The notes below the pieces were generated by a model. That model was not told where the DNA came from and did no database searches. It saw nothing but the letters and a program-made list of their open reading frames with translations. From NCBI RefSeq assembly GCF_056746865.1, contig NZ_CM163382.1: a DNA stretch of 64,000 bases; one strand, given 5' to 3'. The number at the start of each line of letters is the position of its first letter. Positions within the stretch are counted from its first letter, which is position 1. Positions 22,922 to 45,488 of this stretch are shown piece after piece. Both the position numbers and the translations under genes were made by a program.

Positions 22922-24229
22922 ATTGGATGAGCCAGTCAAGACTCAATCATTTTTTGAACAAATAGATAAATTTTGCGCAACGGCAGTGAATACAGGAAAA
23001 ATCGTTTTGAGCGATTTTATTTATCTTTGATATCGGCTTTATTAATTCATTTAATCAATATATTAGCACTGATTACAATTATACCTTTTTATTATTCTGT
23101 GTCATGATGCTTCCGTTATTAGCCTTTTATCGTCTTGTTTATATTTTTTGGGCCGGCATGATGCCGGCTTTTTTTTATGCCTTCATTAATGTGCGCCTGA
23201 TCACACCAGCCGTTTGGCGCAACAATCATTGATACCCCCTATGTTTCCGCTCAACTCATAACATATTGATATACATTTATAATTTTCATGAATATTTATA
23301 TTTAGAATTCATAATTCTGAATTATATTAAATAGATTAGAAACATTTTGAAATCTTTTAAATACATTTGTTACATGTAATCCTTAAAATAAAATGAACTT
23401 CATAGAATAGTATCCAAATGTGCTTTTTTTGGATAACGGCACTTATTGATATATTCATGAAGATTATAATCACAAGGGAATACATAATGAAAAGAAAAGT
23501 TCTGGCAATGCTGGTCCCGGCGTTATTAGTTGCTGGCGCAGCAAATGCGGCTGAAATTTACAATAAAGATGGCAATAAAGTTGATTTCTACGGCAAGATG
23601 GTTGGCGAACGCATCTGGTCAAATACTGATGATAATAACAGCGAAAACGAAGATACCTCCTATGCTCGTTTCGGTGTTAAAGGTGAAACCCAAATCACCA
23701 GCGAACTGACTGGTTTTGGTCAGTTTGAATACAACCTCGACGCCAGCAAGCCCGAAGGCTCTAATCAGGAAAAAACCCGTTTAACCTTCGCAGGTTTGAA
23801 ATATAACGAGTTAGGATCTTTCGACTATGGTCGTAACTACGGTGTTGCTTATGATGCCGCAGCTTATACCGATATGTTAGTTGAATGGGGTGGTGATTCC
23901 TGGGCTTCCGCTGACAACTTCATGAACGGTCGTACCAACGGTGTTGCAACCTACCGTAACTCTGATTTCTTTGGTCTGGTTGATGGTCTGAATTTTGCTG
24001 TGCAATATCAAGGTAAGAACAGCAATCGTGGCGTTACTAAACAAAACGGTGATGGCTATGCGTTGTCTGTAGACTACAACATCGAAGGTTTTGGTTTTGT
24101 AGGTGCATATAGCAAATCTGATCGTACTAATGAACAAGCTGGTGACGGCTACGGTGATAACGCTGAAGTGTGGTCATTAGCAGCCAAGTATGATGCAAAT
24201 AATATCTATGCAGCGGTAATGACTCCAAC

Positions 24230-24733
24230 TTATTGATAGTGTTTTATGTTCAGATAATGCCCGATGACTTTGTCATGCAGCTCCACCGATTTTGAGAACG
24301 ACAGCGACTTCCGTCCCAGCCGTGCCAGGTGCTGCCTCAGATTCAGGTTATGCCGCTCAATTCGCTGCGTATATCGCTTGCTGATTACGTGCAGCTTTCC
24401 CTTCAGGCGGGATTCATACAGCGGCCAGCCATCCGTCATCCATATCACCACGTCAAAGGGTGACAGCAGGCTCATAAGACGCCCCAGCGTCGCCATCGTG
24501 CGTTCACCGAATACGTGCGCAACAACCGTCTTCCGGAGCCTGTCATACGCGTAAAACAGCCAGCGCTGGCGCGATTTAGCCCCGACATAGCCCCACTGTT
24601 CGTCCATTTCCGCGCAGACGATGACGTCACTGCCCGGCTGTATGCGCGAGGTTACCGACTGCGGCCTGAGTTTTTTAAGTGACGTAAAATCGTGTTGAGG
24701 CCAACGCCCATAATGCGGGCAGTTGCCCGGCAT
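24230..24733 (-). CDS. insB: IS1 InsB (expressed as InsAB' by -1 frameshift)
   Basis: 167-aa ORF overlapping insA; A6C slippery run at about 24668..24676. Confidence 0.93.
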
Positions 24734-24927
24734 CCAACGCCATTCATGGCCATATCAATGATTTTCTGGTGCGTACCGGGTTGAGAAGCGGTGTAAGTGA
24801 ACTGCAGTTGCCATGTTTTACGGCAGTGAGAGCAGAGATAGCGCTGATGTCCGGCGGTGCTTTTGCCGTTACGCACCACCCCGTCAGTAGCTGAACAGGA
24901 GGGACAGCTGATAGAAACAGAAGCCAC
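24652..24927 (-). CDS. insA: IS1 InsA
   Basis: 91-aa [26 protein letters not shown]... Confidence 0.93.
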
Positions 24928-25380
24928 TGGAGCACCTCAAAAACACCATCATACACTAAATCAGTAAGTTGGCAGCATCACCCTATGCAGCAATGATGTA
25001 CGGTGAAACCCGCAACATGACCGTTTTGGCTAATGATCATTTTGCAAATAAAACCCAAAACTTTGAAGCTGTTGTACAGTATCAGTTCGACTTCGGTTTA
25101 CGTCCGTCTTTAGGCTACGTATATTCCAAAGGCAAAGATCTTTATGCTCGTAATGGACATAAAGGTGTTGATGCTGACCGCGTAAATTATATCGAAGTTG
25201 GTACCTGGTACTACTTCAATAAGAACATGAACGTCTACACAGCATACAAATTTAACCTGCTGGATAAAGACGATGCAGCGATTACCGATGCCGCAACTGA
25301 TGACCAGTTTGCAGTTGGTATCGTCTACCAGTTCTAATCAGCCAACGCGCCGCGGCGTGTTACTGTAAAACATAACACTA

Positions 25381-25419
25381 GCCTGAGTTCGTCCCTCATC
25401 GAACTCAGGCTTTTTTTAT
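25381..25419 (+). terminator. Rho-independent terminator after the porin gene
   Basis: GCCTGAGTTCG...CGAACTCAGGC hairpin followed by TTTTTTTATT. Confidence 0.7.
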
Positions 25420-25930: not shown

Positions 25931-26782
25931 ATGACTGTTCAAACAAGTAAAAATCCGCAGGTCGATATTGCTGAAGATAATGCATTCTTCCCTTCAGAAT
26001 ATTCGCTTAGCCAATATACCAGTCCTGTCTCTGATCTTGATGGCGTGGACTATCCAAAACCGTATCGCGGTAAACATAAAATTCTGGTGATCGCCGCGGA
26101 CGAACGTTATTTGCCGACCGATAACGGGAAACTGTTCTCGACCGGTAACCATCCGATTGAAACGTTGCTGCCGTTGTATCATCTCCATGCTGCAGGTTTC
26201 GAATTCGAAGTGGCGACCATTTCCGGTCTGATGACCAAGTTTGAATACTGGGCTATGCCGCACAAAGATGAAAAAGTAATGCCATTCTTTGAGCAGCATA
26301 AATCGTTGTTCCGCAATCCGAAGAAACTCGCGGATGTTGTCGCCAGCCTCAACGCTGATAGCGAATATGCAGCAATCTTTGTTCCTGGTGGTCATGGCGC
26401 ACTTATTGGTTTACCTGAAAGCCAGGACGTAGCTGCCGCTTTACAGTGGGCAATCAAAAATGACCGTTTCGTTATCTCCCTTTGCCACGGCCCGGCGGCT
26501 TTTCTGGCGCTTCGCCACGGCGATAACCCACTGAATGGTTATTCCATTTGCGCATTCCCAGACGCCGCAGACAAACAAACGCCAGAGATAGGCTATATGC
26601 CGGGTCATCTCACCTGGTACTTCGGCGAAGAGCTGAAGAAAATGGGCATGAACATTATTAATGACGACATCACTGGGCGAGTACATAAGGACCGTAAAGT
26701 TCTCACCGGCGACAGTCCTTTCGCAGCGAATGCGTTGGGTAAACTGGCGGCGCAGGAAATGCTGGCAGCTTATGCGGGTTAA
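25931..26782 (+). CDS. hchA: Hsp31 glyoxalase / chaperone HchA
   Basis: 283-aa DJ-1/PfpI-type ORF. Confidence 0.93.
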   Translation: MTVQTSKNPQVDIAEDNAFFPSEYSLSQYTSPVSDLDGVDYPKPYRGKHKILVIAADERYLPTDNGKLFSTGNHPIETLLPLYHLHAAGFEFEVATISGLMTKFEYWAMPHKDEKVMPFFEQHKSLFRNPKKLADVVASLNADSEYAAIFVPGGHGALIGLPESQDVAAALQWAIKNDRFVISLCHGPAAFLALRHGDNPLNGYSICAFPDAADKQTPEIGYMPGHLTWYFGEELKKMGMNIINDDITGRVHKDRKVLTGDSPFAANALGKLAAQEMLAAYAG

Positions 26783-34882: not shown

Positions 34883-36151
34883 ATGTCTTTAAACGATTCT
34901 AAAATCCGCAAGTTAAAATCTTCTTCCCGTCCGGTAAAACTCTCCGACTCTCACGGTCTGTATCTGCTCGTCAATCCGGGCGGTTCGCGCATCTGGTATC
35001 TCAAATATCGTTTCAACGGAAAAGAATCCAGAGTCAGTCTTGGCGCATACCCGCTGGTCTCACTGGCAGAAGCCAGGCAACAGCGCGACGGTATCCGCAA
35101 GTTACTGGCGCAGAATATCAACCCGGCGCAGCAGCGCATGGCAGAGAAAGCCGCCTGCTCCCCTGAAAAGTGCTTTAAAGCGGTGGCGGTGGCGCTGGCC
35201 TGGCACAAAACCAACAAAAAATGGTCGGCTGATTATGCCGCCCGTATTCTCGCCAGTATGGAAAACCATATCTTCCCGGCGGTTGGTCATTTGCCCGTTG
35301 CCAAACTTAAAACGCAGGATTTCACTGCCCTGCTGAGGGTTATTGAGGATAAGGGCTTTCTGGAAGTCGCGTCCCGCACGCGGCAGCAACTCAGCAACAT
35401 CATGCGCTATGCCGTATAGCAGGGGCTTACCGAAAGCAATCCGGCGCAGCATCTGGATGGCGTTGTCTCCTCCCCCGTAAAGAATCACTACCCCGCGTTA
35501 CCGCTGGAGCGGTTGTCCGAACTGCTTGGCCGCATCGGTGACTATCAGCAGGGCCGGGAGTTAACCCGGCTGGCGGAGGTGCTGACACTGCACCTGTTCA
35601 TCCGTTCCAGCGAACTGCGTTTCGCCCGCTGGAGCGAGATCGATTTCAGGCACAAAATCTGGACCATCCCCGCCACCCGCGAGGCCATCGACAAAGTTCG
35701 GTTTTCGGGGCGTGGCGCAAAAATGCGTACTCCGCATATCGTACCGCTCTCCCGCCAGGCGATTGCCCTTCTGAAACAGATACAGGAGCTTTCCGGCCAT
35801 CTGGATCTGGTGTTTCCCGGCGATCATAATCCGTACAAGCCAATGAGCGAAAACACAACCAACCGGGCGCTGCGCCTGATGGGGTATGACACGAAAACTG
35901 AAATCTGCGGGCATGGACTCAGGGCAATGGCCTGTAGCGCCCTGGTGGAGTCGGACCTGTGGTCACGCGATACGGTGGAGCGGCAAATGAGCCACCAGGA
36001 GCGCAACAGCGTGCGGGCGGCATATGTGCATAAAGCAGAGCATCTGGAGGCCAGAAAGGCCATGATGCAGTGGTGGTCGGATTATCTGGATGTGTGCCGC
36101 GAGGGGTATGTTGCGCCGTACATTTATGCCCGGCAGCATAAGGCAGCCTGA
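34883..36151 (+). pseudogene. P4-type tyrosine integrase at asnT, interrupted by a single in-frame TAG at 35417..35419
   Basis: ORFs 34790..35419 and 35513..36151 share one frame and are separated only by TAG; N-terminal SLNDSKIRKLK arm-binding-type domain; C-terminal catalytic region. Confidence 0.85.
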
Positions 36152-38346: not shown

Positions 38347-38935
38347 GAATCCCCTGCAACATAAACAAACAGTCTCCGGCGTGTGCTGTTTGGCTGCGCC
38401 AGAACGATACCTTCACGCCGGAGTGGCTGGTTGTTGAGGTTTAGGGAGTTTCAGGCTGTACGCGGTACAGACTGCCTGACGAAGCAGGGGTGTCTCCGGA
38501 GCATCGTGCCCCCCCTCGGTATCGATCTTTTTCTCCTTTACTCTGAGCTGACAGCGGCCCCAAAGGGCATGTCAGACGGCGGAAATATGGCGCAGGCCGG
38601 GACTGGCGCGGCTTGCGGCGGTATGTTGTGCAGCGTCACTTTGCCCTGTCGCTGGCGCGACCAGAGTGACACCTCGTCTGGTGCAGAGGGTAAACGTTGC
38701 GTTTCTGGTGCAGGGTGACGGTCACGCGGCAGCAAAGCCTGCTGTCTTTGCAGGCCGCAGCCCGTCAATGTAAGGCGCGGGTTGTCAGCAGAAGATAAAA
38801 CCCGGCAAAGCCAGAGTGCCAGCCCGTAAAGCCGGGTAAGCATGGCTACGAAGAAGAGAAGTGGAGAAAAAATAAATGACCGACAAATCTTATGCGGGAT
38901 GGGAATTAAACTACGCCGCTTAACTGCGGGTAACG

Positions 38936-41900
38936 GTGACCTTCACCATGCCACAGGACGTTGCGGCAAACTTTACCCTCGAAAATAACGGCATTGCCAT
39001 CACCCAAGCCAATGGGGAAGCGCATGTCACGCTGAAAGGTAAAAAAGCGGGTACGCATACGGTTACCGCAACGCTGGGTAATAACAATACCAGTGATTCG
39101 CAGCCGGTAACGTTTGTGGCGGACAAAACCTCGGCTCAGGTTGTCCTGCAGATGTCAAAAGATGAGATCACAGGTAATGGCGTCGATAACGCAACGCTAA
39201 CTGCAACGGTTAAAGATCAGTTCGACAATGAGGTGAATAATCTTCCGGTAACATTCAGCTCAGCCTCTTCAGGACTCACCCTGACCCCGGGAGTAAGTAA
39301 TACCAATGAGTCTGGCATCGCGCAGGCCACTCTCGCAGGCGTTGCCTTTGGTGAGCAGACGGTCACTGCATCACTGGCTAATAATGGTGCCAGCGACAAC
39401 AAAACTGTGCATTTTATTGGCGACACAGCAGCGGCAAAAATTATCGAGTTGACGCCTGTCCCAGACAGCATAATCGCCGGTACCCCGCAGAACAGCTCCG
39501 GCAGCGTCATCACCGCCACAGTCGTTGATAATAATGGCTTTCCGGTGAAAGGTGTGACTGTGAACTTCACCAGCAGAACAAACTCTGCCGAAATGACGAA
39601 TGGCGGCCAAGCCGTAACGAACGAACAGGGTAAGGCTACCGTCACTTATACCAATACCCGCTCCTCGATAGAATCAGGAGCGAGACCGCATACCGTTGAG
39701 GCCAGTCTGGAAAATGGTAGCTCCACGCTTAGCACATCAATTAATGTCAACGCTGATGCGTCTACGGCACATCTCACCTTGCTACAGGCACTTTTTGATA
39801 CAGTCTCCGCAGGCGACACTACCAATCTGTATATTGAGGTGAAGGATAATTACGGCAACGGTGTACCCCAGCAGGAGGTAACCCTCAGAGTATCACCAAG
39901 TGAAGGCGTGACCCCCAGTAATAACGCTATATATACTACCAACCACGACGGCAATTTTTACGCAAGCTTTACCGCTACAAAAGCCGGGGTTTATCAAGTG
40001 ACGGCAACCCTCGAAAATGGCGATTCGATGCAACAAACAGTGACCTATGTGCCGAACGTAGCGAATGCTGAAATCACGCTGGCAGCCTCGAAGGATCCGG
40101 TGATTGCCGACAATAACGATATCACGACACTAACAGCAACAGTCGCTGATACAGAGGGCAATGCGATAGCCAACACTGAGGTAACATTTACTCTGCCGGA
40201 AGATGTGAGGGCGAACTTCACGCTGAGCGATGGCGGTAAAGCGGTTACTGATGCCGATGGCAAAGCGAAAGTCACGCTGAAAGGTACAAAAGCAGGCGCT
40301 CATACTGTTACAGCATCGATGGCTGGCGGTAAGAGTGAGCAGTTGGTGGTGAACTTTATTGCGGATACACTCACTGCGCAGGTTAATCTTAACGTTACCG
40401 AGGACAATTTTATCGCTAATAACGTCGGGATGACCAGGCTGCAGGCAACAGTGACTGATGGAAACGGCAACCCGTTAGCCAATGAGGCGGTGACATTCAC
40501 GCTACCGGCAGATGTGAGCGCAAGCTTTACTCTCGGACAAGGCGGTTCCGCCATTACTGATATCAACGGCAAGGCTGAAGTTACACTGAGCGGTACAAAA
40601 TCCGGCACCTACCCCGTGACAGTTAGCGTGAACAATTATGGTGTCAGTGATACGAAACAGGTGACTTTGATTGCCGATGCTGGTACCGCAAAACTAGCCT
40701 CATTAACCTCTGTATACTCTTTCGTCGTCAGCACGACCGAGGGCGCGACCATGACTGCAAGCGTCACTGACGCTAACGGCAACCCGGTAGAAGGCATAAA
40801 AGTTAATTTCCGCGGAACCTCCGTCACGCTAAGCAGCACCAGCGTTGAAACGGATGATCGGGGTTTCGCTGAAATTCTTGTGACAAGCACCGAGGTCGGA
40901 CTGAAAACAGTTTCAGCCTCTCTGGCAGATAAACCTACTGAAGTCATCTCGCGATTACTGAATGCAAAAGCAGATATTAATTCTGCAACGATTACCAGTC
41001 TGGAGATACCTGAAGGTCAGGTCATGGTCGCACAAGACGTAGCAGTTAAAGCTCACGTCAACGACCAGTTTGGCAATCCGATTCTTAATGAATCTGTAAC
41101 ATTCAGTGCAGAGCCACCAGAGCACATGACCATCAGCCAAAATATTGTCTCTACTGATACGCATGGTATAGCCGAGGTCACTATGACGCCCGAAAGAAAC
41201 GGTTCGTATATGGTGAAAGCATCCCTGGCGAATGGATCCTCTTATGAGAAGGATCTGGTGGTAATCGATTAAAAACTGACACTCTCGGCGTCCAGCCCGC
41301 TTATCGGTGTCAATTCCCCAACAGGTGCAACTCTGACGGCAACGCTAACTTCTGCAAATGGCACTCCAGTGGAGGGTCAGGTCATCAACTTTAGCGTAAC
41401 GCCAGAAGGTGCGACGTTAAGTGGCGGAAAAGTGGGAACCAACTCTTCAGGTCAGGCTCCAGTCGTTCTGACCAGCAATAAAGTCGGTACATATACGGTG
41501 ACTGCATCGTTCCATAACGGCGTAACAATACAGACACAGACAACCGTGAAAGTCACTGGCAACTCAAGCACCGCCCATGTTGCTAGCTTTATCGCTGATC
41601 CATCGACTATCGCCGCCACCAACAGTGATTTAAGTACCTTAAAGGCAACGGTTGAGGATGGCAGTGGTAACCTGATCGAAGGTCTCACTGTGTACTTCGC
41701 CTTAAAAAGCGGCTCTGCCACATTAACGTCATTAACAGCGGTGACAGATCAAAACGGAATCGCGACAACAAGCGTGAGAGGAGCGATAACGGGGAGCGTC
41801 ACGGTAAGCGCAGTCACGACCGCTGGTGGAATGCAAACAGTAGATATAACGCTGGTGGCAGGCCCGGCAGACGCCTCAAAGTCAGTCCTTAAGAACAATC

Positions 41901-42000
41901 GGTCATCATTGAAAGGAGACTTTACCGATAGTGCTGAGCTACATCTTGTTCTGCACGATATATCAGGCAATCCGATCAAAGTTTCTGAAGGGCTGGAATT
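38936..42000 (+). repeat. Tandem coding repeats of about 300 nt (bacterial Ig-like domains) within the yeeJ remnant
   Basis: Recurrent nucleotide and protein motifs (GTCACGCTGAAAGGTA..., TVTATL/TVTASM) at roughly 100-aa spacing. Confidence 0.6.
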
Positions 42001-42775
42001 TGTGCAATCAGGTACTAACGTGCCCTATATGAAAATTAGCGCAATTGATTACAGTCAAAATATCAACGGTGATTACAAAGCCACCATTACAGGCGGCGGA
42101 GAGGGTATCGCAACGCTGATCCCTGTATTGAATGGTGTTCATCAAGCTGGTCTGAGTACCACAATACAATTCACTCGCGCAGAAGACAAAATAATGAGCG
42201 GTACAGTATCAGTCAATGGTACTGACCTACCGACAACTACATTCCCTTCGCAGGGGTTCACCGGGGCGTATTATCAGTTGAATAATGACAACTTTGCCCC
42301 AGGAAAAACGGCGGCTGATTATGAGTTTTCAAGCTCTGCCTCCTGGGTCGATGTTGATGCTACCGGTAAAGTGACATTTAAAAATGTCGGCAGCAATTGG
42401 GAAAGGATTACGGCGACGCCAAAATCAGGAGGCCCTAGCTATGTATACGAAATCCGTGTGAAGAGTTGGTGGGTGAACTCCGGCGATGCTTTCATGATAT
42501 ACAGCCTTGCTGAAAATTTTTGCAGTAGCAATGGCTACACACTTCCCCGTGCAGACCATTTAAACCATAGTCGTTCCCGAGGCATCGGGTCACTGTACAG
42601 TGAATGGGGAGATATGGGGCATTACACGACTGAAGCTGGTTTTCAATCAAATATGTATTGGTCATCTAGTCCCGCAAACTCAAGCGAACAATACGTAGTT
42701 TCCCTGGCAACAGGTGATCAAAGCGTATTTGAAAAGCTTGGGTTTGCTTATGCGACATGTGATAAAAACCTGTGA
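38936..42775 (+). pseudogene. yeeJ: 3' portion of an inverse-autotransporter adhesin gene (yeeJ-like; Big_1 Ig-like repeats and C-terminal lectin-like domain), 5' half absent, with in-frame TAA at 41270..41272
   Basis: ORFs 38936..41272 and 41369..42775 share one frame, separated by one TAA; repeated VTFTLP...FTL...G.A.VTLKG.KAG.HTVTA units; homology begins abruptly at about 38924 with no signal peptide or beta-barrel region. Confidence 0.8.
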
Positions 42776-43036: not shown

Positions 43037-43191
43037 TCATATTCTCGCCAAAACACTTTTTAATGCCTTTGCGAATTCATCCAGACTTATATTGTCAATT
43101 TTTTGCCCAACGACGACTGACTCCGAAACATCGGCCATTGCGGGCCATCGCGTTTTGTAATCAGCATAAATTGCAACAACGGGAGTATTAT
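43037..43191 (-). pseudogene. yeeL: Displaced 3' end of yeeL (about 51 codons) left of the IS2 insertion
   Basis: Minus-strand frame continues the yeeL frame once IS2 plus one 5-bp duplication (1336 bp) is removed. Confidence 0.55.
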
Positions 43192-43202
43192 TGGATTTGC
43201 CC

Positions 43203-44108
43203 CTATATTTCCAGACACCTGTTATCACTTAACCCATTACTGGCCCGCTGCCGTAGATATTCCCGTGGCGAGCGATAACCCAGTGCACTATGCGGATGCC
43301 ATTCGTTATAATGCTCGAACGCCTCTGCAAGGTTCTTTGCTGCCGTTAACCCGTCTGGTTTAGGCATGATACTGATGTAGTCACGCTTTATCGTTTTCAC
43401 GAAGCTCTCTGCTATGCCGTTACTCTCCGGACTCCGCACCGCCGTGTTCTTCGGTTCAAGCCCCAACATCCGGGCAAACTGCCGTGTTTCATTAGCCCGG
43501 TAGCATGAACCATTATCCGTCAGCCACTCTACTGGAGACGCCGGAAGCTCGTTGCCGAAGCGGCGTTCCACCGCTCCCAGCATTACGTCCTGTACTGTTT
43601 CACTGTCGAAGCCGCCCGTAGTGACTGCCCAGTGCAGTGCCTCACGGTCACAGCAGTCCAGCGCGAACGTGACTCGCAGTTTTTCTCCGTTATCACAGCG
43701 GAACTCGAACCCGTCAGAGCACCATCGTTGATTGCTTTCTTTCACGGCCACTTTGCCAGTATGTGCCCGTTTCGATGGCGGTACAGCGGTTTTTCGCTCA
43801 AGCAACAGCGCATTCTGGCGCATGATCCGGTAAACACGTTTGGCATTGATCGCAGGCATACCATCAAGTTCGGCCTGTCTGCGAAGCAGCGCCCATACCC
43901 GACGATAACCATACGTGGGCAGCTCTCCGATAACATGGTGTATACGGAGAAGCACATCCGTATCATCTGAGTGACGGCTGCGGCGACCATCTTTCCAGTC
44001 ATCGGTTCGTCTGAGAATGACGTGCAACTGCGCACGCGACACCCGGAGACAACGGCTGACTAAGCTTACTCCCCATCCCCGGGCAATAAGGGCGCGTGCG
44101 CTATCCAC
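43203..44108 (-). CDS. insD: IS2 transposase OrfB (InsD)
   Basis: 301-aa ORF with DDE-transposase sequence. Confidence 0.93.
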
Positions 44109-44431
44109 TTTTTTGCACGCCCGTATTCAACGGCTTCTTTAAGGAGTTCATTTTCCATCGTTTTTTTGCCGAGCAGGCGCTGGAGTTCTTTAATCTGCTT
44201 CATGGCAGCAGCAAGTTCAGAGGCAGGAACGACCTGCTCTCCTGCGGCCACAGCAGTAAGACTTCCCTCCTGGTATTGCTTGCGCCAGAGAAATAACTGG
44301 CTGGCTGCCACACCGTGTTGCCGGGCAACAAGGGAGACCGTCATTCCCGGTTCAAAACTCTGCTGAACAATAGCGATCTTTTCCTGTGTAGTACGCCGTC
44401 TGCGTTTCTCCGGTCCTAAGACATCAATCAT
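44066..44431 (-). CDS. insC: IS2 OrfA (InsC)
   Basis: 121-aa product from [18 protein letters not shown]; overlaps insD for -1 frameshifting. Confidence 0.93.
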
Positions 44432-44522
44432 CTGCTCTCCAATGACTAGTCTAAAAACTAGTATTAAGACTATCACTTATTTAAGTGATATTGGTTGTCT
44501 GGAGATTCAGGGGGCCAGTCTA

Positions 44523-45488
44523 ATTATAGGCACTTGCCATATGTAATATTGAGGTGTCAGGAGTTATTGCGATATAAGCATCTTTTATGATTGCTGCTGA
44601 ACGTTTAATCGAGGGTGATAAGGATAAACGGTAGACATTATTATAACAATCCACTAATACCCTGGCTTTATCTTCCCCTTTTGGTCCATGAACGATCACT
44701 ATTGGTATATCTGTTTCACTTTGAATTTTTGCTATTAGATTTTCTGCAATCGATAATGAAAATGTACGTTCCTGCGAGCTACCTTCTAAATTAAGCGCAA
44801 TGTAAGATCCTAACGATCGCATTTCCTCGCGCACCTCATCGAGTACATCCTCACTTAGTGGCAATTCATATATTGGCCTGACTGCTGGAAAACCCGCCTC
44901 ACGCATCATAAATGCCCATGTCATGGGTACAGGAGCCCGGAGATTCTGATCCATCCGGGACGCGTTCTTGCACAAAGGGGAGTAGCACTTCATGGTTAAA
45001 CCAACAACCTGAAAATTCGTTTTTGCTTTTAACTGACTGATAAATATCATCGTTTTCAGGTTCTTTTTACGCATCGCCTCTATACAAAGATCCGGCGTAC
45101 CGTATTGCTGTGTTATGTTCTTTGCTAAATCTTTTATTTCTTTTAATGTTGCGTGATCCTGCATAGTCATTGTGACTAATGTTAATTTAGTCTTTTCAAG
45201 TTTAAGTGCATTAAACACTTCTAAATTAATTGTCGACGTAACAATTAAAAGATGCTTAATTTTATGCAATTCAAGCGCCCGAATAACAGGAAAGATGGCC
45301 ATAGCATCGCCAATCTGGTCGGGAATATGGATAACAACAAACTCTGTTTTTTCAATATTAAAATTATAAGCTTTATAATCGTAGTAACTAAATGCAATAC
45401 GTCTCAACAATGATGCTAAAAACATACCTAACCTCGCCTCCCTACTGGTTATAATGCATTGCAGTCTATCAGACTCATCATGGCGCAA
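44523..45488 (-). pseudogene. yeeL: yeeL, uncharacterised putative transferase, 3' end disrupted by IS2
   Basis: 322-aa ORF whose apparent stop codon lies inside the IS2 terminus. Confidence 0.7.

Follow-up and report, generated by a model that had tools for sequence, protein, structure and literature searches.

The insertion sequence IS1 is 768 bp long and encodes the repressor InsA and the transposase InsAB', the latter obtained through frameshifting at an A6C motif (PMC12428005, PMC5009759) whose role in the -1 frameshift has been described for this element (PMC12428005). It duplicates 8 or 9 bp of its target and prefers AT-rich DNA (PMC12428005, PMC5009759). In Escherichia coli K-12, the chromosomal slot between drpB/rseX and hchA is held by yedS (b4496), a porin gene that is dead through an in-frame TAG codon (…NNGFFG*VDG…) together with a 1-nt frameshift, and not through an IS. 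In the window, by which we mean the whole 64,000-nucleotide stretch of DNA that was analysed, a porin gene lies in the same slot and in the same gene order as in K-12, drpB - rseX - porin - hchA - hprS, and it is split by an IS1. The insertion of IS1 into this porin gene is real, and is an ordinary event of a known kind. The explanation that we favour, to which we assign a probability of about 0.93, is a single insertion: an IS1 of active type entered the porin gene of the yedS locus, accessory and until then intact, in a recent ancestor of the strains that carry it, and produced a null allele that is most likely neutral or nearly so. The locus is made up of the following features, in window coordinates:

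23086-23175, plus strand: rseX small RNA gene (Rfam RF01401, 97.7 bits; gathering score 50)
23487-24214, plus strand: 5' porin fragment, nt 1-728, codons 1-243 including a 21-residue signal peptide
24206-24214: left 9-bp copy of the target-site duplication, CTATGCAGC, corresponding to porin nt 720-728
24215-24982, minus strand: complete IS1 of the IS1A type, 768 bp, a 100% match to annotated IS1A-family copies
24215-24237: right inverted repeat of IS1
24230-24733, minus strand: insB' frame with the DDE catalytic domain (Pfam DDE_Tnp_IS1, E = 2.3e-78)
24230-24927, minus strand: coding sequence of the InsAB' transposase, predicted as a -1 ribosomal frameshift fusion of insA and insB'
24652-24927, minus strand: insA, 91 aa, repressor and DNA-binding part (Pfam Zn_ribbon_InsA, E = 1.3e-21; HTH_Tnp_IS1, E = 4.7e-31)
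24670-24676, minus strand: A6C slippery motif (AAAAAAC as read on that strand), predicted site of the -1 frameshift (element position 307-313)
24960-24982: left inverted repeat of IS1
24983-24991: right 9-bp copy of the target-site duplication, CTATGCAGC
24992-25337, plus strand: 3' porin fragment, nt 729-1074 including the TAA, with strands 11-16 and the C-terminal ...GIVYQF, and no signal peptide of its own
25380-25411, plus strand: terminator-like hairpin of the porin gene, a 12-bp stem followed by a T run

The first-pass annotation of this DNA had described a 768-bp IS1 between identical 9-bp copies at 24206-24991, and this description is correct to the base. A search of both strands of the 64-kb window finds CTATGCAGC at just these two places, and the 768 bp that separate them (24215-24982) are IS1, beginning GGTAATGACTCCAACTTATTGAT and ending ATCAGTAAGTTGGCAGCATCACC; these are the right and left terminal inverted repeats respectively, complementary at 18 of 23 positions. 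The chance that the nine bases following an element equal the nine preceding it is 4^-9, or ~4e-6. Excision of IS1 with one copy of CTATGCAGC takes 777 bp, equivalent to 259 codons, out of a reading frame that starts at the ATG at 23487 and ends at the TAA at 25335-25337. What is left is a porin ORF of 1074 nt, encoding 357 aa and closed by a single terminal stop; a scan of these 1074 nt for internal stops found none. Exact restoration of the frame had likewise been claimed; the 357-aa ORF bears this out, and the sequence across the joint agrees with what was given. The same annotation held IS1 to be the only lesion in the gene, and for the coding sequence this stands: in-silico excision uncovers no further frameshift or stop, the restored protein is identical to WP_000824362.1, the intact porin of the close relative HCM-25C-3, and both halves of the gene share 100% nucleotide identity with uninterrupted 1074-bp 'porin' genes in many E. 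coli genomes, for example E24377A. Since the restored ORF equals the intact genes of relatives, IS1 is the sole coding-sequence lesion.

The inserted element, transcribed in the direction opposite to the porin gene, is to judge from its sequence an intact element of active type, identical to widespread copies. Its 768 bp match, at 100% identity, copies that bear the label 'IS1-like element IS1A family transposase' in many E. coli genomes; insA is intact, the insB' frame is open in the -1 phase relative to it, and Pfam PF03811, PF12759 and PF03400 all score far above their gathering scores in the products. Compared as GGTAATGACTCCAACTTATTGAT and GGTGATGCTGCCAACTTACTGAT, the two ends of the element match at 18 of 23 positions. 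With the IS1 of K-12 (IS1A/IS1E consensus type) the element shares its length of 768 bp, the same terminal inverted repeats, insA and insB' with A6C, and the 9-bp target duplication, whereas three substitutions (765 of 768 bases identical) and a different chromosomal location distinguish it from the K-12 IS1A. The IS1 copies at this site in two other strains, EC17CM13 and F11, which are discussed below, carry the annotation 'programmed frameshift'. A candidate hybrid promoter facing outward at the left end of IS1 (TTGGCA at 24969-24974, a spacing of 17 nt, AATGAT) was rejected: only 9 of 12 positions match, such sites are no commoner in the region than in shuffled sequence, and the porin fragment downstream also lacks a signal peptide.

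At the left junction the 5' porin fragment runs on into IS1 and stops at the TGA at 24234-24236. Its predicted product has 249 aa, of which 243 are native (the signal peptide and 222 mature residues) and the last six, VMTPTY, are encoded by IS1. In EC17CM13 and F11 the two fragments are labelled by PGAP as 'porin, incomplete, missing C-terminus' (5') and 'porin, incomplete, missing N-terminus' (3'). The restored ORF, on the other hand, scores 407.7 bits against Pfam Porin_1 (E = 6e-122), with residues 27-357 covering profile positions 1-337 of 337. An AF2 model of the restored protein, based on 34 homologues and of medium confidence (mean pLDDT 77.6), has 16 strands, a long segment with short helices at residues 115-152, and the C-terminus ...VYQF; the model accordingly shows what is typical of general porins, namely a barrel of 16 strands, a long internal loop (loop 3) and an aromatic residue at the C-terminus. 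There, the target duplication (codons 240-243) falls directly after a two-residue turn (238-239), at the start of strand 11 (240-250). Assembly of outer-membrane proteins requires a closed barrel and a C-terminal aromatic signal, and since the product of the interrupted allele would have neither strands 11-16 nor the C-terminal Phe, this allele should be null.

The NCBIfam equivalog or subfamily cut-offs for OmpF, OmpC and PhoE are not reached by the window porin, with scores of 449 against 583, 432 against 484 and 424 against 599, respectively, and it thus represents a separate porin lineage. The best-scoring relative of solved structure is OmpK35, the OmpF-type porin of Klebsiella pneumoniae (PDB 9hn1, 5o77), which matches over the full length with 506 bits (E = 6e-151). 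Both are Porin_1 proteins, the window protein being a predicted 16-strand barrel, and they differ in species and locus; it is to OmpK35/OmpF that the window porin is closest. Proteins 74-87% identical to it are encoded in other E. coli and in E. fergusonii, Enterobacter, Citrobacter, Leclercia and Klebsiella oxytoca.

Comparison with K-12 divides what had been said earlier about yedS. That the K-12 gene is a pseudogene for other reasons, and that the inactivation seen here is independent of it, are both right, TAG plus frameshift in one case being set against IS1 in the other. The suggestion that the two are the same gene is right as to the slot, but not as to the sequence: they are identical over the first ~70 nt, the signal-peptide region, and beyond it fall to 70% identity in nucleotides and 55% in protein, with several long indels. 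The conceptual product of K-12 yedS is 40 residues longer, with longer loops, and PGAP names K-12-type copies 'porin OmpC'. The window porin and K-12 yedS would therefore be different porin types that are the same gene by position only. By identity to the window allele, 5,426 complete E. coli genomes sort into discrete classes: at least 99% in 706, 90-95% in 578, 80-90% in 859 and 60-80% in 2,696. The occurrence of very different porin types at one locus, and their repeated loss, is a pattern only glimpsed here, and one possibly of more interest than the IS1 insertion.

Upstream of the porin gene, rseX, the neighbour by which the yedS locus is recognised, contains a terminator-like hairpin at 23150-23170. 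Downstream of the porin gene, hchA (25931-26782, as annotated in relatives) lies ~590 bp further on, and since the terminator-like hairpin of the porin gene is intact, a polar effect of the insertion on hchA is unlikely. Upstream, 57-63 nt before the ATG, there is a run of seven T (23424-23430) where all 14 other loci compared have eight. This difference was considered as a second lesion and rejected, the exact T7 version being found in 459 genomes; we regard it either as a common variant in the length of the homopolymer or as a read error. The upstream region of the porin gene is AT-rich, at ~30% GC (the gene itself has ~45%), which fits the known preference of IS1 for AT. For rseX, next to it, repression by H-NS/StpA has been reported (PMC8313858), and this, taken with the AT-rich upstream region, suggests that even the intact porin gene may be poorly expressed.

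The insertion is not confined to the window strain. EC17CM13 (chicken, Zhejiang) and F11 (China), isolates from chicken and human urine in China, share the insertion point to the base, as well as the orientation of IS1 and the 9-bp duplication. Nowhere in the collection of 5,426 E. coli genomes does the interrupted gene as a whole match the window exactly. These two are the best matches to the left 24 kb of the window, and EC17CM13, F11 and the window match one another more closely than they do any other of the 5,426 genomes. In its first 43 kb the window is separated from each of the two by ~5 substitutions (two of those in F11 lie in IS1); further differences are homopolymer indels and alignment-end artefacts at an IS2 junction specific to the window. 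HCM-25C-3 and EC6563 each show ~16 substitutions relative to the window in 38 kb, and at positions 1388, 10074 and 36727 the window, EC17CM13 and F11 share a state that sets them apart from these two. The porin gene is intact in the near-identical relatives HCM-25C-3, 300490 and EC6563, while in another close relative, D2, a C to A change at 25211 has independently created a stop inside it. On the simplest account, then, the insertion, which is not private to the window strain, would mark a small clade.

The IS1 copies of the three strains differ slightly: at position 24497 EC17CM13 and F11 have A where the window has C, and F11 alone has A at position 24539. If IS1 inserted only once, the copies must have diverged afterwards, by mutation or by gene conversion from IS1 elsewhere, and it is to gene conversion that we attribute the differences. 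The insertion had been called recent in the first-pass annotation, and this holds in part. Neither IS1 nor the duplication has decayed, which argues for an evolutionarily recent insertion, and the intact relatives are only ~16 substitutions per 38 kb away; nevertheless the event predates the window strain, being common to EC17CM13 and F11.

IS1 has struck this porin gene elsewhere too. In ABWA45 an element of IS1B type sits 7 bp downstream of the window site in the same orientation, with the duplication GCAATGATG. Other insertions within the gene are found at nt 893-901 in CFS3246, nt 156-163 in HZ13 and nt 134-141 in 20409, and at further positions in NR2550, DETEC-S792 and HCP6S3_I2; in other lineages IS1 lies in the flanking intergenic regions or in hchA. 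Altogether, IS1 is in or adjoining the porin gene in one orientation in at least 19 of the 5,426 genomes and in the other in at least 12, some 31 in total. An apparent orientation bias, whereby every IS1 pointed the same way as in the window, was an artefact of a query that joined only pieces on one strand; the 12 further genomes came from a query with IS1 flipped. If insertions were uniform, ~12 chromosomal IS1 per genome and a span of ~3.9 kb in 5 Mb would predict ~50 such genomes, or ~14 for the ORF alone, a rough figure that ignores kinship among genomes. Enrichment of IS1 in the porin gene was accordingly rejected, the counts being no higher than this expectation, and from the counts alone there is no evidence of targeting or selection.

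Our preferred explanation follows established IS1 biology. InsAB', made by the -1 frameshift at A6C, would have linked the two ends of IS1 to a cut with a 9-bp stagger at porin nt 720-728, and gap repair would have given the duplication of CTATGCAGC. There would have been one such event, in the recent ancestor that the window strain shares with EC17CM13 and F11, after the split from the relatives with intact genes. The allele would most likely have persisted because losing this dispensable porin is neutral or nearly so. Other lineages have lost the porin repeatedly, and its dispensability is suggested by the stop and frameshift in K-12 yedS, the stop in D2 and the independent IS1 hits elsewhere.

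The identical insertions in the three strains might instead represent independent hits on a local IS1 hot spot. Such a hot spot would account for the differences between the three IS1 copies, each variant of which is a common IS1A variant elsewhere, and for the closeness of the ABWA45 insertion in the same orientation; a second close pair, at nt 134-141 and 156-163, points the same way. It would have to explain, however, why base, orientation and 9-bp duplication coincide in precisely the three genomes that are mutually closest among 5,426, with the nearest intact-gene relatives more distant. The differences between copies, moreover, are readily explained by gene conversion in a multicopy IS, given that F11 has 39 places matching a porin-plus-IS1 query, nearly all of them IS1 copies. 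We consider independent hits very improbable. Far more improbable still, to the point of being negligible, is the possibility that the structure results from misassembly or from a rearrangement that joined two segments flanked by IS1. Assemblies often go wrong at IS copies, which are also classic places for recombination, and in NR2550 the porin locus does have an IS1 junction without a duplication; here, by contrast, the duplication is perfect, the sequence on each side runs collinear with the unbroken gene and the genes around it, and the same structure is found in the independent complete assemblies of EC17CM13 and F11, so that no artefact of assembly is at issue.

As regards persistence, neutral loss has to be weighed against positive selection of the porin knockout, through reduced entry of β-lactams or carbapenems or through escape from a porin-dependent phage or colicin, as with IS in ompC, ompF and ompK36. 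IS1 disruption of major porins is a documented route to resistance, two reports, citing Warner et al. (2013), name YedS as a factor in the carbapenem resistance of a clinical E. coli from China (PMC4048246, PMC11267920), EC17CM13 and F11 come from chicken and human urine in that country, and the porin locus has been inactivated repeatedly in other lineages. Selection is nonetheless unlikely in our estimation, since the at least 19 and at least 12 genomes with IS1 do not exceed the ~50 expected, and since the gene has stayed intact in three close relatives, one of which came from urine in China. A wider proposal would make the drpB-hchA slot a porin-swapping locus, at which divergent types (OmpK35/OmpF-like here, OmpC-like in K-12) alternate behind a conserved signal-peptide and promoter region, selection by phage, colicins, host immunity or antibiotics both maintains and repeatedly destroys these types, and the IS1 knockout is one adaptive loss among many; this, too, we regard as unlikely. 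The neutral or nearly neutral loss of an accessory porin, following a single insertion, remains the reading that we prefer.

Disruption of porin genes by IS1 is textbook knowledge, and this exact insertion is already present in public genomes, where it is correctly annotated as two porin fragments and an IS1. Its importance beyond annotation is small: the two fragments and the IS1 are best annotated as one interrupted gene, and the IS1 junction can be used as a marker of the clade formed by the window strain, EC17CM13 and F11. The status of the gene (intact, interrupted by IS1 or with a stop) may merit recording when permeability-based resistance is inferred from genomes, since porins of the YedS locus have been linked to carbapenem entry. 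In 2013 Warner et al. reportedly tied YedS to the susceptibility of a single clinical isolate to carbapenems. By proteomics, a porin '50% homologous to YedS' has been detected in an O26:H11 strain (PMC9731836), which as regards the window allele is a lead only.

The closest precedents for the event as a whole are the IS inactivations of general porins, namely ompC and ompF in E. coli and ompK35 and ompK36 in Klebsiella. As in those cases, a simple IS insertion splits the ORF of a 16-strand porin, and loss of the porin is to be expected. No resistance phenotype is known for the IS1-interrupted allele described here, and it differs from ompC, ompF, ompK35 and ompK36 in its target, which is not a major porin but a non-core, strain-variable porin of the yedS locus.

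At the site where IS1 splits the window porin, the element itself differs among the window strain and the two isolates that carry it at the identical position, EC17CM13 and F11, with differences at window positions 24497 and 24539. Since each of the variants at these positions is frequent in IS1A copies elsewhere, comparison of the copies suggests that gene conversion among IS1 elements lies behind the differences. The same porin allele is inactivated by a different lesion in the very close relative D2 (L008), namely a C to A change, equivalent to window position 25211, that produces an internal stop. In other E. coli lineages, independent IS1 insertions are found across the whole 3.5-kb drpB-hchA interval, distributed over individual loci as follows.

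drpB-porin spacer: IS1 in L013 and L015
porin-hchA spacer: IS1 in L014 and L021
hchA: IS1 in L011 and L012, at two different sites

A second insertion sequence, IS2, disrupts a minus-strand gene of the window that encodes a family-9 glycosyltransferase.

43192-44522: complete IS2, 1331 bp, inside the glycosyltransferase gene (-)
43187-43191 and 44523-44527: 5-bp target duplication, ATTAT

Comparison with the window shows this site to be unoccupied in EC17CM13, F11 and EC6563; the HCM-25C-3 sequence used for the comparison lacks the stretch bearing the site. On this basis the IS2 appears to be unique to the window strain. Separately, further pseudogenes annotated in relatives correspond to window 585-1719, 34883-36151 and 38930-42775, the coordinates being obtained by correspondence with the relatives' loci L016 and L017 and the pseudogene calls being those of the relatives' annotation, which describes them as listed here.

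DUF5503 pseudogene, with frameshift and stop
tyrosine integrase pseudogene, with internal stop, adjoining tRNA-Asn
yeeJ-like Ig-domain adhesin, truncated, pseudogene

Upstream of the porin lie two features.

23086-23175 (+): rseX small RNA gene and its terminator, 5' of the porin and in the same orientation
23424-23430: T run within the palindrome TATCCAAA...TTTGGATA, 57-63 nt 5' of the porin ATG

Repression of rseX by H-NS/StpA has been reported (PMC8313858). The T run is seven nucleotides long in the window and eight long in all 14 compared loci, the closest relatives included; the exact seven-T version is present in 459 of 4,869 genomes.

Across different E. coli, widely divergent porin types occupy the yedS locus, and the porins found there fall into discrete identity classes among genomes. 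That of the window (23487-25337) is of the OmpK35/OmpF-like type. Its protein shares 55% identity with that of K-12 yedS (L005 4052-5244), and the K-12-type porin at this locus carries the PGAP label OmpC. The signal-peptide region ahead of the window-type and K-12-type porins is identical.
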